Positions 22,780 to 27,866 of a stretch of DNA of 32,000 nucleotides are shown here, piece after piece. The stretch is from Candidatus Heimdallarchaeota archaeon B3_Heim (GTDB taxonomy: Archaea > Asgardarchaeota > Heimdallarchaeia > Hodarchaeales > Hodarchaeaceae). The notes under the pieces are model-generated. The model saw only the letters and a list, made by a program, of their open reading frames with translations, searched no databases and had not been told where the DNA came from. Position numbers and translations under genes: made by a program. Each line of letters starts with the position of its first letter. Position 1 is the stretch's first letter. The stretch lies in assembly GCA_003144275.1 (NCBI GenBank), contig NJBF01000001.1:90001-122000 (forward strand), given 5' to 3'.

Positions 22780-23898
22780 ATGATGAATATTCACAGTAAA
22801 TCCAGACTTCCGATTTCGGATTGGGGCCTTATTATCATTTTCGTTATGATTTATCCGTTAGCTGTCGGTGTAACTTTAGTTTATTTCTTCTATAGCTATA
22901 ATGATAGGACTATCCAATTACTCTTTTTGAACATCATAATGCTCATATTTCTGGCCGTTTTTCTCTATTTGTATCGATCAGCATTCCATAGACTTGACAT
23001 ATATGCTAAAAAAGTCGATTTCTATCATTTTACTCCCTCTCTGGCCGATTTTTTTATTCATTTGATTAAACAAGTTTATTATGTGCTTTTTCTTGGATTT
23101 TTGCTTAGTATCATCATTGAATTCTTGGTTTCTGATTCTAATATTGATTTAACAGTGTATTTGGGATTCTCTATTGGCACTTCTCTTATTTTAGAGGGAT
23201 TTTTCCTAGTTATTCGCATGCGAAGTAAAATCTCTCTAATAAATACAGCTCAAGAATCTGTAAAAGATGATATCATAAAAGACATAAACCTAAATCATCC
23301 AGAAAGTGAGAAAATTAGTGAATATCGATTTGCTGATATTCAAGTACCATCCTTATTCCTTTCTGCGGGAGTAACAACCTTTGGCATAAACAATTACATT
23401 TGTTTAGTTTCTAGATATTTTAATTGGAAATTAAATGACAAAGAATTAATCGCAGTCTTATTACATGAAGTTGGCCACGTCAAGAACAATCACATAAGGA
23501 AATCATATATGATCCTTGGAACAGAAGTAATCTTACGCTCGATTAGGATCTTTATTGTAATACTCGCGCTTCTAATTTTTTCTCAACAACACGAAAATTT
23601 TGACATAGATCTCTACTCATTACTTTATCTAAGCTTGATTCTTAGTGTATTCCTTACATCCGCGTTTTTAACATTTTTTCGGAAATATCGGATATACTTA
23701 GCTGAAATCTGGGCTGATGAGTATTCAGCAGATAAGGTGGGTGCACTGGAACTAGCAAGTATCTTACGGAAACTTCCAGAACTTATTCCTTCCCCTTTAG
23801 TCTATGATCAATCCTCTTTTCTAGGATTCAGAGTAAATTTATTGAGGAATTCGGCAAAGGATCTTCGAAATGTGAATAACAAAAAAATCAATCAATGA
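22780..23898 (+). CDS. M48-family (HtpX/Ste24-like) membrane zinc metalloprotease
   Basis: Multiple TM helices, EL.AVLLHEVGH (HExxH), downstream E..AD.YS. Confidence 0.85.
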   Translation: MMNIHSKSRLPISDWGLIIIFVMIYPLAVGVTLVYFFYSYNDRTIQLLFLNIIMLIFLAVFLYLYRSAFHRLDIYAKKVDFYHFTPSLADFFIHLIKQVYYVLFLGFLLSIIIEFLVSDSNIDLTVYLGFSIGTSLILEGFFLVIRMRSKISLINTAQESVKDDIIKDINLNHPESEKISEYRFADIQVPSLFLSAGVTTFGINNYICLVSRYFNWKLNDKELIAVLLHEVGHVKNNHIRKSYMILGTEVILRSIRIFIVILALLIFSQQHENFDIDLYSLLYLSLILSVFLTSAFLTFFRKYRIYLAEIWADEYSADKVGALELASILRKLPELIPSPLVYDQSSFLGFRVNLLRNSAKDLRNVNNKKINQ

Positions 23899-24637
23899 TA
23901 TTGATTTCTACTTCATCTATTCCCATGGATGATAAAAGGGAAGATAGAAATTCTTCAAAGAAACATCCGCCTTTTTCAATCTTACAGAAATAGCATTCGT
24001 TGCAATATAGAAAGTACTTGAGATCTTCACGCTTCACATGTTCGCCGTCTAATTGCATGATAAGTTGATCTATTCTAGCTAAAACGAAGTTCTGGCCTTT
24101 GGATAATGCCTGTTTAAAGGATTCATGATGCTTCTCGAGCAAACGATTCCCAATTTTTCGTCCTAATGTATCCAACCCTTCCTGTAAGTATTCTTCTTCT
24201 GTGAGCAATCCATCTTCGAGTAAAAAAAGGAGAAGAGTTATTTTCTTTCCAAGAGGTAGGAGTATCTCATCTGCGTCTTCAGCAAAACTATCAAAGGTAG
24301 CGAGGTCTACAACCTCACGCTGCCACATTACCTCGGGAAATTTAGTGAAAAAACGTTCTAGAAGATGATCAATTTCTTTTTCACACCATTGGGGATTTAT
24401 TGTTGATTCAATAAAAATAACAAAGAGTAAAGGTTGTTCCCGTTTTTTAAAGAAAAGAGAAACTTTGGACATTTGTAATATATCTATAGCGTCATTCTCC
24501 ACTGCAGTAGCGTAATTATATAATGCGCTAATAAGCCCAGATCGAAGGATAATGTCTGTTGAATTTCCGGTCTGATATTTCCTATGAAACAAAACCGTTC
24601 CTGATTCGTGAATACAGAGAAATTCCCTGATTATCAT
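23888..24637 (-). CDS. Longin-like N-terminal domain fused to a V4R/Bet3-like C-terminal domain
   Basis: FLCIHESGTVLF...SGLISALYNYA...IDIL...LLFVIFI...F...F longin pattern; C-terminal LGRKIGNRLLE and CNECYFC...CFFE..L..LL. Confidence 0.7.
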   Translation of the reverse strand: MIIREFLCIHESGTVLFHRKYQTGNSTDIILRSGLISALYNYATAVENDAIDILQMSKVSLFFKKREQPLLFVIFIESTINPQWCEKEIDHLLERFFTKFPEVMWQREVVDLATFDSFAEDADEILLPLGKKITLLLFLLEDGLLTEEEYLQEGLDTLGRKIGNRLLEKHHESFKQALSKGQNFVLARIDQLIMQLDGEHVKREDLKYFLYCNECYFCKIEKGGCFFEEFLSSLLSSMGIDEVEINIID

Positions 24638-24686: not shown

Positions 24687-26882
24687 TTAAGAATCAAACA
24701 CTTCTAAAATATAAGAATATATTTCCTTTTCAGTGCCTTTCGAAATTTTTTGTAACCGTTGTACAATTAATTCTGGAGTCGATCTTGCATATGTATAATA
24801 TTTGGGTGTTCTATCAACAATTAGTTCCAAGTTCTCTGAAAGGCCCTTTGCCTCAATTCCATCAATTCGTAACCCTTCTTTACAATATTTACTGATTTCT
24901 TGAGCTAAGTGAGTAACAAAAATACCCACAGAATCGGGAGATCGTCCTAACAAATCTAAAAATGCTGCAATAACCCGTGCAGACGCTCCAGGTTCAGAAA
25001 TACTTTCCATTTCATCAGCTAAGACTAGTCTAGAGTTTGGGCTCATGATCATTTGTGAAAGAGTTCTAAGAGTTGATTCAAACGCACCAGCATTCATATG
25101 TCCAGCTGATTTTCGGTAGTAATGTAATTCTTTAAATCCGCCAATTTTTGCCTCATAACATGGAACTGGAAGACCCATTTGGCTAAGTATGATAATGACT
25201 GCAAGGGCTACTAGTAAGGTTGTCTTCCCACCACTGTTTGCTCCTGATAATAGGACAATACGTTCTCCATTAACTCCATTGGCAATTTTTCCAAGTTCTC
25301 CCAAGGCATAGGAGACTGATTCCACTTTCAACTGTCCTTTCAGTTCTTGTTGCGCTAAGAATAGATTTCTACCTTCTTTAACGTATAAACCTGTTCCTTT
25401 CCCTTCAACAAATTCTGGTAAAGCTAAATTATAGGAACCAGCAAATTTACCAATCATTAAGAGATAATCTAATTCCAGCATACAATGAAGTCCTTTCATT
25501 GCTACGTCTTCATATCCCTTTAGTTTCTGAGCTAAATCAACTTTTAACTCAAATGCTTTACTTGAGCGCTTTTTACGTAAATATTCTGTGAATCGATTTT
25601 TAATCTCATCTTGAGGGTCGATAGGGAATTTTAACTCACGAGGAAAGATACCATTTAAGTAATCAGTATCTTCGTCCAATAAATAGAGTTTAGAGGATAG
25701 TTCATTCTCAGCCTTATTTATAATTTCTTCTACAGCCAAGTATAATTCATCATCCAGATATTCACGTAAATCCTTACGACTGGAGTTTGCTGAATATCCT
25801 TGCCCTTCAGCAGAGAATCCTTTTAGCAAAGCGAGGACTTTTTCACCTTCCAAATGAATAGTTGTATCTTGTAGCATCTTTTCTAATTCATCATTCAATT
25901 TCAAAAGGACTTCTTCTAAGACCATTTCAAATGATGTCTCTGCGTTTAAAAGGCGTGAAAATTCCTTGTTGAGGCTAGAACTTGGTTCACCTGTTTCTTC
26001 TAAATTTTTTAACTCCTCACCCATTTCAACCAGCATATTGAGATTTAATTCTCCAATATAATTAGCTAACTTATCTGAGGGGAGCTTTTGAAGGAGCGAT
26101 GCAAGTTTTGCAATTGTTACCAGAGTATTTTTGTTCTGGGCAAAAAAAGTCAATGTTTTTTCTGGAAGTATTCTATTAATTTCATGACGTTGAGATTCAG
26201 AGACAGAAATTATGTTTGGGAGCTCATCATCTAATGCATAATCATTACCAATCCAAATTACTTCATCCGATCCAGCCAGAGTGTCATTAATCTTTTCATA
26301 ATCTTCTATGAATAATATATCACAATAATTTCCTATTATATTTGAGAGAAGTTCGTTGTAGATGCTTTTATCAGTAGTAGCAACAGCACGCGATGCAGTA
26401 TCAATAGAATCGGAGTGTTCCTTTAATGGAGTTAAATGTCTTAACAGTGTATCATATTCAGTAAGCGAATTTGCGGATTTTTCAATTATTGTGTATAGTT
26501 CTAACCCAAGTCGAGTGATTTGTTGTCGATCAATGATTTTTGCTAATGCTGTAATGGGGAGGGGAAAGTATAAGTAAAGTTTTGATCGAGAATAGAAGGT
26601 ATTACCAAATTTTGAAATTAAATCTATTATACGATTATATATCAAAATAGTATCTTCAGTTTTTAGAAAATCCTGAATCTGTTCCCCAGTTTCTTGGTAA
26701 TGTAGATTTCGACAAAGGCTGAGGGCAAATCGTTCACCTATTCCATCAATAGAGGAGATCTCGGCAATTCGTGACCATCTTAGCGCGTTAAGAACAAGAT
26801 CTTCGCTTCCAAAGTACGAAACGAGTTTCTTTTCACTGGAAGGGCCAATTCCCCTAATATCACGAAGTTTTATCGCGTTCAA
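24687..26882 (-). CDS. MutS-family ATPase with N-terminal helix-hairpin-helix motifs (archaeal MutS5-like)
   Basis: HhH motifs IRGIGP and IDGIGE; LSGANSGGKTTLL, Q.GLPVP, GAFESTL, LADEME, VTH; no mismatch-binding domain seen. Confidence 0.85.
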   Translation of the reverse strand: MNAIKLRDIRGIGPSSEKKLVSYFGSEDLVLNALRWSRIAEISSIDGIGERFALSLCRNLHYQETGEQIQDFLKTEDTILIYNRIIDLISKFGNTFYSRSKLYLYFPLPITALAKIIDRQQITRLGLELYTIIEKSANSLTEYDTLLRHLTPLKEHSDSIDTASRAVATTDKSIYNELLSNIIGNYCDILFIEDYEKINDTLAGSDEVIWIGNDYALDDELPNIISVSESQRHEINRILPEKTLTFFAQNKNTLVTIAKLASLLQKLPSDKLANYIGELNLNMLVEMGEELKNLEETGEPSSSLNKEFSRLLNAETSFEMVLEEVLLKLNDELEKMLQDTTIHLEGEKVLALLKGFSAEGQGYSANSSRKDLREYLDDELYLAVEEIINKAENELSSKLYLLDEDTDYLNGIFPRELKFPIDPQDEIKNRFTEYLRKKRSSKAFELKVDLAQKLKGYEDVAMKGLHCMLELDYLLMIGKFAGSYNLALPEFVEGKGTGLYVKEGRNLFLAQQELKGQLKVESVSYALGELGKIANGVNGERIVLLSGANSGGKTTLLVALAVIIILSQMGLPVPCYEAKIGGFKELHYYRKSAGHMNAGAFESTLRTLSQMIMSPNSRLVLADEMESISEPGASARVIAAFLDLLGRSPDSVGIFVTHLAQEISKYCKEGLRIDGIEAKGLSENLELIVDRTPKYYTYARSTPELIVQRLQKISKGTEKEIYSYILEVFDS

Positions 26883-26954: not shown

Positions 26955-27866
26955 TTAAATTTTTGTGATTTCCTGCGCATTTGCTAGTTCAATAAACTGG
27001 TTTACCTCATCAAAGGAACAATGATCTGAGTAGGGAAAATAATGGACGTCTAATCGCTTTGAAACTAATTCAACAGCCCAGCCTGTTGGTGAGATCCTCA
27101 AGGAATCAAGCAAGCGGGCTTCTGTTTGCTGATCTAATCCAGTGAGATTTTCAACCCTCCTTCTACTCTCAACACAAATTCCAGAGTCTGGATCATCAGT
27201 AAAAATGTCCCAACCTCCACCTATTTCTTTATAAATCTGAACTTTTTTTTCAGGAGCGAAAATTTTCACTTTCAAGGCATCACTTATTGTTTTCAATAGT
27301 TTTTCCTTTCCTATTTGGTACGCAGCAATCCAGATCTCCTTATGAGGATAATTACCATCCGCTAACATAAGGGATAATATTTCGGAGATTAATTCCTTAC
27401 GAGAGGGAAAATTATACCTTGGCATGTCACCATAGGTATAATCTACCCATAAATGATCCGCACCTTGAATAAGCTCTAATTCATCTAAAATTGGTTTACC
27501 GAGGCGAAAATCACCAGTATAGACTTCTTTCCTATTTTCCGATGATTCAATCACAAACATCAAACTACCTAAACAATGGTTTGCATCTATTGCGTGTATC
27601 ACAAAATCATCAAAATCTAGAGATTGGTTTGTACCTATAAGTAAGCATTTCTCTTTTGGAATTCGGTGAAGAACTTTAAGGGCTGCAGCAGTTTCTTTCG
27701 AGCAAACTATGGTCGTGTCTGAGGAAGAAAGCACAGATTTTATTCCTGTAGTGTGGTCACTGTGAGCGTGGGATAGAAAAAAATAATCTGATGATGTTGC
27801 GAGTTTCTTTCTTTGACGAAATGGAAATTCATCAAAATAACTATTGGCTAATTTAGAAAAAACCAT
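26955..27866 (-). CDS. SNM1/Pso2/Artemis-like beta-CASP DNA nuclease
   Basis: FLSHAHSDH, DANHCLGS.MF, YTGDFR, VDYTY, YQIGKEKL, SPTGW, PYSDHCSFDEV. Confidence 0.8.
   Translation of the reverse strand: MVFSKLANSYFDEFPFRQRKKLATSSDYFFLSHAHSDHTTGIKSVLSSSDTTIVCSKETAAALKVLHRIPKEKCLLIGTNQSLDFDDFVIHAIDANHCLGSLMFVIESSENRKEVYTGDFRLGKPILDELELIQGADHLWVDYTYGDMPRYNFPSRKELISEILSLMLADGNYPHKEIWIAAYQIGKEKLLKTISDALKVKIFAPEKKVQIYKEIGGGWDIFTDDPDSGICVESRRRVENLTGLDQQTEARLLDSLRISPTGWAVELVSKRLDVHYFPYSDHCSFDEVNQFIELANAQEITKI

Follow-up and report, generated by a model that had tools for sequence, protein, structure and literature searches.

Does a gene of an Asgard archaeon join in one chain the two kinds of fold from which the TRAPP core is built, and, if so, what could it tell us about how that core arose? 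TRAPP is a conserved exchange factor for Rab1 and Rab11 whose core is made of longin and Bet3-type folds, and the Hodarchaeales are the proposed sister lineage of eukaryotes. The question is raised by an open reading frame (ORF) at 23888-24637 on the minus strand of the window, by which we mean the whole 32,000-nucleotide (nt) stretch analysed here (Candidatus Heimdallarchaeota archaeon B3_Heim, contig NJBF01000001.1, positions 90,001 to 122,000). A sequence-only reading of this ORF saw in it a longin/sedlin-like N-terminus followed by a V4R/Bet3-like half, and took the fusion for a possible Rosetta stone of the TRAPP core. We read its 249-residue product, P0001, as a soluble two-domain protein of Hodarchaeales-type Asgard archaea in which a longin domain is joined to a shortened and divergent domain of the V4R/Bet3/H-NOX superfamily, and we give this reading a probability of about 0.62. 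The coding sequence and its two domains lie as follows.

23888..24637, minus strand: the whole coding sequence, 249 codons plus stop, from the ORF call and conserved homologues.
24323..24637, minus strand: longin domain, residues 1-105, from the predicted topology, Foldseek and Pfam matches in relatives.
23891..24322, minus strand: C-terminal domain, residues 106-249, read as a truncated V4R/Bet3-superfamily domain.

The ORF is a real, conserved gene. In a word-indexed search P0001, which begins with MIIREF, matches 41 clusters at 90% identity with E-values of 1e-59 to 1e-144; most of these are 244-293 residues long and share a MIIREF-type start, and their named sources are proteins of Asgard metagenome-assembled genomes (MAGs), chiefly Hodarchaeales or Heimdallarchaeota. 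HMMER, run exhaustively against 1.84 billion representative sequences, returned 14 full-length clusters at 50% identity. The remaining matches span only residues 1 to about 130, and no stand-alone or longer form of the C-terminal domain appeared in that search at E <= 1e-3. Since further matches stop near residue 130, the C-terminal domain was detected solely as a fusion with the longin half.

For the N-terminal half the fold is clear. AlphaFold2, run with the family alignment, gives a model of P0001 with a mean predicted local distance difference test score (pLDDT) of 83 and a predicted template-modelling score (pTM) of 0.78. Strands at residues 3-10 and 15-20 are followed by a helix (33-45), three further strands (51-55, 60-66 and 70-76) and a second helix (82-99); this beta-beta-alpha-beta-beta-beta-alpha order is the longin topology, and, unlike in roadblock proteins, the N-terminal helix is absent. 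Foldseek against the PDB returns 42 chains for this half at E-values of 1.2e-5 to 1e-3, with AP-1/AP-2 sigma and zeta-COP at the top and Fuzzy, VAMP7 and Ykt6 lower in the list; the 18th chain is 2j3t_C, a longin of TRAPP, and most of the roadblock and MglB proteins stand below these. At the sequence level, P0001 scores 15.7 bits with the Pfam model Fuz_longin_1, under the cut-off of 26.1; the same model weakly matches 17 of the 25 relatives scanned, with an E of 1.4e-7 at best, and Clat_adaptor_s, also weakly, matches 7 of them, while none of these family members matches Sybindin or Sedlin. The assignment of residues 1-105 to the longin fold is therefore firm. The nearest matches of this half are AP sigma, zeta-COP and longins of the Fuz/Mon1 type, and a specific kinship with TRAPP longins or sedlin is not supported. 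Thus the longin part of the sequence-only reading stands, its sedlin part lacks support, and the non-longin fold, such as roadblock, by which that reading could have been overturned is not the case.

What, then, is the C-terminal half? In the AlphaFold2 model it begins with a helical region (helices 112-141, 147-152, 159-169, 171-180 and 182-195), after which come a beta hairpin (201-211), a cysteine loop, a helix (226-237) and a last strand (244-248). The terminal hairpin of the V4R/Bet3 domain is missing, the protein stopping at residue 249 after that single strand, and profile alignments likewise end short of the ends of the V4R and Bet3 profiles. Chains from three mutually divergent branches, Bet3, NtrC-type V4R and H-NOX, dominate the list of structural matches. 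For the sequence comparison we built independent profiles from other Asgard genomes, one from 34 V4R domains and one from 20 Thor TRAPPC3-like proteins. Aligned by hhalign with the Asgard V4R profile, the C-terminal profile gives P 0.0043 and a score of 23.1 over 81 colinear columns, against 13.0 for the reversed control and 17.0 for the best of 60 block shuffles; with the Thor TRAPPC3 profile it gives P 0.029 and a score of 18.8, which is inside the shuffle range. Four elements fall on their V4R/TRAPPC3 counterparts: the helix with LG-x3-G, the hairpin, the loop with Cys-x2-Cys, and the helix with the invariant Cys-Phe pair. When all 6164 ORFs of at least 80 amino acids in the window's own genome are ranked with a hidden Markov model (HMM) of V4R, the ORF comes 2nd, right behind the canonical V4R protein (per-sequence p 2.8e-4), whereas the Thor TRAPPC3 HMM ranks it 598th; the top match of the latter model in this genome is an NFACT protein, which we discarded as a chance match. 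Because of these ranks (2 versus 598 of 6164) and P-values (0.004 versus 0.029), the C-terminal domain appears nearer to generic V4R than to Bet3, and the comparisons give no evidence of Bet3 orthology.

A bridging family also speaks for the V4R/Bet3/H-NOX superfamily. About 200 residues long, mostly single-copy and without a Pfam match, it occurs in 62 of the 68 genomes of Asgard family f14 and is among the strongest out-of-family matches of the C-terminal profile. By hhalign this family (L074) aligns with our C-terminal domain at P 0.002, with V4R at 8.7e-5 and with Bet3 at 5e-4; the V4R-Bet3 pair itself gives 1.5e-5 by the same procedure. It is represented by G267:C81:5857-6492 (L074/L092), with further loci at L093-L121. 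Tran, Akil, Senju and Robinson (2024; Commun Biol 7:273, PMC10933270) mention a Loki-type TRAPPC3-like protein, with which this family may be identical. The best match of the C-terminal profile outside its own family, at 23 bits, is a 147-residue ORF (L073, G076:C2:53283-53723) with the same pattern of hairpin, Cys-x3-Cys loop and aromatic-Cys helix and no V4R signal.

Several results weigh against the V4R/Bet3 assignment. Neither P0001 nor any of 25 relatives matches Pfam V4R, TRAPP or HNOB at E-values up to 1, and genome searches with the Pfam V4R and TRAPP models miss the ORF. In the reverse direction, a search of the window's own genome with the C-terminal profile does not recover its V4R protein; among the weak genome matches of that profile are one protein of KaiC-V4R type and one that is DUF6144/HNOB-like, but also DtxR repressors and hemerythrins. 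Moreover, with Foldseek the C-terminal model matched nothing in the PDB at E <= 1e-3, and in the ESM Atlas, searched by features as well as by shape, there was either no usable match or a template-modelling score (TM) < 0.4. The signals in favour are weak one by one but agree with each other, and on balance we consider it likely that the C-terminal half truly belongs to the V4R/Bet3/H-NOX superfamily, as a truncated member without the terminal hairpin. The idea of longin and V4R/Bet3 in one chain is thus upheld, firmly on the longin side and as a likely assignment on the other, and a specific likeness to Bet3 is what lacks support.

The Pfam search finds in this genome a single canonical V4R protein and no TRAPP gene. 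The former, of 561 residues (locus L091, G000:C11:55145-56827, minus strand), consists of a thioredoxin/glutaredoxin-like domain and two V4R domains, and in three searched genomes of the same genus the V4R matches lie in open frames of 542-561 amino acids. Two sets of candidates for further fusions were rejected. A 265-residue ORF of another genome (G014) with a weak TRAPP match fails to match the profile of the longin-V4R-like family, and of the Asgard V4R proteins of 240-285 residues that were checked, three proved to be helix-turn-helix (HTH)-V4R regulators and one to have an N-terminal zinc ribbon.

The motifs that had first drawn attention to the ORF, LGRKIGNRLLE, CNECYFC and CFFE, are all present, the ORF itself lies exactly where the sequence-only reading placed it, and in profile alignments the C-terminal motifs do run colinear with helices and cysteine positions of V4R and Bet3. 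Conservation was read from the aligned sequences of 25 relatives, the most distant at 25% identity, in which D49, M56, F63, F96, P101, F118, E147, C212, C225 and F226 are invariant, C215 is nearly so and C218 varies. The conserved elements are these.

24509..24544, minus strand: RSGLISALYNYA, residues 32-43, helix alpha1, the most conserved stretch of the longin half.
24197..24199, minus strand: E147, invariant in the 25-relative alignment, in the loop after the long helix.
24134..24166, minus strand: LGRKIGNRLLE helix, residues 158-168, placed by alignment on the helix with L-x-x-x-G-x-x-x-G in V4R and Thor TRAPPC3-like proteins.
23984-24004, minus strand: CNECYFC, residues 212-218.
23954-23965, minus strand: CFFE, residues 225-228.
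23954..24004, minus strand: cysteine cluster C212-x2-C215-x2-C218 ... C225-F226, residues 212-228, read as a predicted zinc site.

C212, C215 and C225 align to cysteine positions of both V4R and Thor TRAPPC3. The cluster probably forms a zinc site that would tie the hairpin to the following helix, with E147 as a candidate fourth metal ligand or, alternatively, a structural residue. In the longin half, R32 to Y40 are invariant in relatives of at least 45% identity, and from this conservation we infer only that this part of helix alpha1 may bind a partner.

How might such a protein work? Judging from the alignments, the C-terminal half would keep a V4R domain's helical part and hairpin, together with the loop bearing Cys-x2-Cys and the helix bearing Cys-Phe, the metal probably being structural. 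By analogy, this half would most likely bind another protein or a hydrophobic ligand of small size, because several other V4R domains scanned in Asgard archaea are fused to an output or partner module: three are joined to HTH domains, while KaiC and a thioredoxin-like domain are the partner in one case each. A sensor joined to an output is the usual logic of the V4R domain. The longin half would most likely serve as a platform for protein-protein contacts, which may be a dimer and may serve a small GTPase. A homodimer prediction with two copies scored 0.36 against a mark of 0.42, and we use it neither for nor against a dimer. Zinc binding, ligand binding, dimerisation, a GTPase link and TRAPP ancestry are things we infer only.

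The family has a narrow distribution. A survey for the fusion in Asgard genomes, as the sequence-only reading had proposed, found strong matches of the C-terminal profile within a single order: of the 20 genomes in the window's own family 13 have one, as do both genomes of a sister family, with one to three copies of the gene per genome, but 0 of the 279 other Asgard genomes searched. Other phyla are named in some NCBI MAG labels of database homologues, and these labels are not reconciled with the one-order distribution. The Pfam TRAPP model, for its part, is found in 72 of the 76 genomes of Asgard family f11 and in 0 of the 20 genomes of the window's own family.

The longin half is a promiscuous module. 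In the window's own genome 14 ORFs of 145-580 amino acids carry a related longin (for example C4:43419-44195, C47:67372-68121 and C7:25510-27249); several of them are about 250 residues long, with C-terminal halves that lack the cysteine motif. Database relatives of the longin half include fusions with an Arf-like GTPase and with a MutS-III-like region, the latter in P0070, of 697 residues.

Nor is the gene neighbourhood of the family fixed. In the window, the gene overlaps at its 3' end a convergent M48-like membrane peptidase gene by 11 nt, and upstream, across a 49-nt gap on the same strand, lies a gene for a 731-residue protein with helix-hairpin-helix (HHH) motifs at its N-terminus and a MutS domain V ATPase (24687-26882, minus strand), itself preceded by an SNM1/DRMBL-type metallo-beta-lactamase nuclease gene at 26955-27866 (minus strand). 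A conserved operon with the MutS-like and SNM1-like genes was considered and dropped, the arrangement being kept only in orthologues of at least 88% identity; distant family members adjoin HMG-CoA reductase or DNA methyltransferase genes instead. In 16 loci of the family, no pair of genes for small three-helix membrane proteins was seen alongside. The nearby small GTPase that the sequence-only reading had proposed to look for is not among the eight neighbouring proteins scanned. The GTPase-like ORFs found on the window's contig are about 110 kb away, and a Ras/Arf-like gene about 8 kb from one relative means little, Asgard genomes being GTPase-rich.

With these results in hand we can weigh other readings of P0001. 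The C-terminal half could be an unrelated helical, zinc-binding alpha/beta domain that resembles V4R and Bet3 by convergence, through a short cysteine motif and amphipathic helices, and would be a new lineage-specific partner of the longin. We consider this unlikely. The structural list is dominated by Bet3, NtrC-type V4R and H-NOX branches, the pre-specified comparison with V4R beats every shuffle and places the ORF 2nd of 6164, and the long colinear alignments put the invariant cysteines and phenylalanine at hallmark positions of V4R; moreover, the L074 family connects both sides. A more specific alternative takes residues 125-205 (nt about 24023-24265) as a degenerate DtxR/MntR-like winged helix, with wing, and dimerisation helix, which would make P0001 a metal-sensing, DNA-binding regulator. 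A profile search of PDB sequences does match MntR over residues 132-204 (E 0.006), and two Asgard repressors of the DtxR family were matched in genome searches (E 0.0014 and 0.012). However, the AlphaFold2 models show one 30-residue helix plus short helices, with neither an HTH nor a beta wing, none of the fold searches returned a DtxR or MntR chain, and the match, which covers the winged HTH (wHTH) only in part, fades to E 0.11 with a more diverse alignment. We reject this reading on structure and give it almost no weight.

The reading with the largest consequences is that P0001 is a single-gene proto-TRAPP, in which a longin dimer recreates the Bet3-like/longin/longin/Bet3-like centre of the core and acts as an exchange factor for Rab-like GTPases of Hodarchaeales. 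Both fold types of TRAPP do occur within one chain, the two-domain model with its pTM of 0.78 points to domains held in a fixed arrangement, and the longin-TRAPPC3 protein of Tran et al. was predicted by them to be a homodimer (PMC10933270). Moreover, since none of the 20 Hodarchaeales genomes searched has a TRAPP gene detectable with Pfam, P0001 could be their sole Bet3-like fold. Against this, neither half is specifically TRAPP-like, the longin is joined to many other domains, strong matches are limited to one order, synteny is not kept and no GTPase gene is adjacent; in Thor-type genomes, the true TRAPPC3-like genes have genes of wHTH and V4R type as neighbours, and no longin gene. We therefore regard the proto-TRAPP reading as quite improbable, nothing specific supporting it, and a mini-TRAPP at work in Hodarchaeales today, with a longin homodimer, two Bet3-like domains in TRAPP-core order and exchange activity on Rab-like GTPases, as more improbable still. 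What is left of the Rosetta-stone proposal is that both folds probably share a chain. The step from there to TRAPP is weak, because the architecture was already published, the C-terminal domain resembles V4R more than Bet3 and the longin is not TRAPP-like, and also because the longin is promiscuous, the matches lie in one order, and there is neither a conserved neighbourhood nor an adjacent GTPase.

If P0001 is, as we prefer, a longin joined to a shortened V4R-type domain, why should it matter? A natural fusion of a longin and a Bet3-type domain in the closest archaeal relatives of eukaryotes is a simple one-protein system, which could serve to test whether longin and Bet3-type folds cooperated before eukaryotes arose. 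To the single example in print our analysis adds a conserved family confined to one order among the genomes searched, without a fixed neighbourhood, and a V4R-type domain in truncated form, which goes unseen by the standard domain models. A mini-TRAPP, if true, would be a living model of the TRAPP core prior to duplication. Because the architecture is already published, however, the value of our result is incremental unless biochemistry shows regulation of a GTPase.

How does P0001 compare with known systems? For the longin half, AP sigma, zeta-COP, Fuzzy/Mon1 longin 1, VAMP7, Ykt6 and Bet5/Trs23 share its fold and topology, and it shows no preference for the TRAPP longins among them. For the C-terminal half the reference family is the prokaryotic V4R domain (PF02830; PoxR 5FRU, DmpR 6IY8, MJ1460 2OSO). 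Judged by the alignments, both begin with a helical half that contains an L-x3-G-x3-G helix, and both have a hairpin followed by cysteines and a Cys-aromatic helix that would tie the sheet to the helix; as in other Asgard V4R proteins, the domain is fused to a second module. Unlike V4R domains, P0001 falls below all Pfam thresholds and lacks the terminal hairpin with its cysteines; its partner module is a longin, whereas in V4R proteins it is an HTH, AAA+ or KaiC module. With Bet3/TRAPPC3 (PF04051; Thor TRAPPC3 7YH2; TRAPP core 7B6D, 2J3T, 3CUE) the match of P0001 stays within the shuffle range.

The TRAPPC3-like genes of Thor-type genomes (L122, G269:C13:73500-84500; loci L003-L022) stand in a setting of their own. 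Two such genes lie about 3 kb apart, and the loci resemble a tandemly duplicated module, each copy consisting of a gene for about 330-350 residues with a weak C-terminal wHTH match, a TRAPP-like gene for about 160 residues and a gene for about 180 residues. This last gene is V4R-like in the downstream copy, while its 177-residue counterpart in the upstream copy matches neither Pfam nor the V4R profile. Genes for an HTH protein and an ABC transporter then close the cluster, within which we find no longin gene.

The closest counterpart of P0001 is the Heimdall protein MBD3190748.1, described by Tran et al. as an N-terminal longin plus a C-terminal TRAPPC3 and modelled by AlphaFold2 as a homodimer (Fig. 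9g and Suppl. Fig. 10g in PMC10933270). Their study concludes that longin, TRAPPC3 and GTPases functionally interact in Asgard archaea; it presents a single model, without a survey, a conservation analysis or mention of domain truncation or invisibility to Pfam, and the two later structure-based Asgard surveys that we checked do not mention a longin-TRAPPC3 fusion. MBD3190748.1 is absent from the member lists of the P0001 family clusters, and we compare the two by published description only: both come from the Heimdall group, and both have the same order of a longin followed by a domain of TRAPPC3/V4R fold. P0001 is a new, divergent member of the longin-TRAPPC3/V4R architecture that Tran et al. 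had already published.

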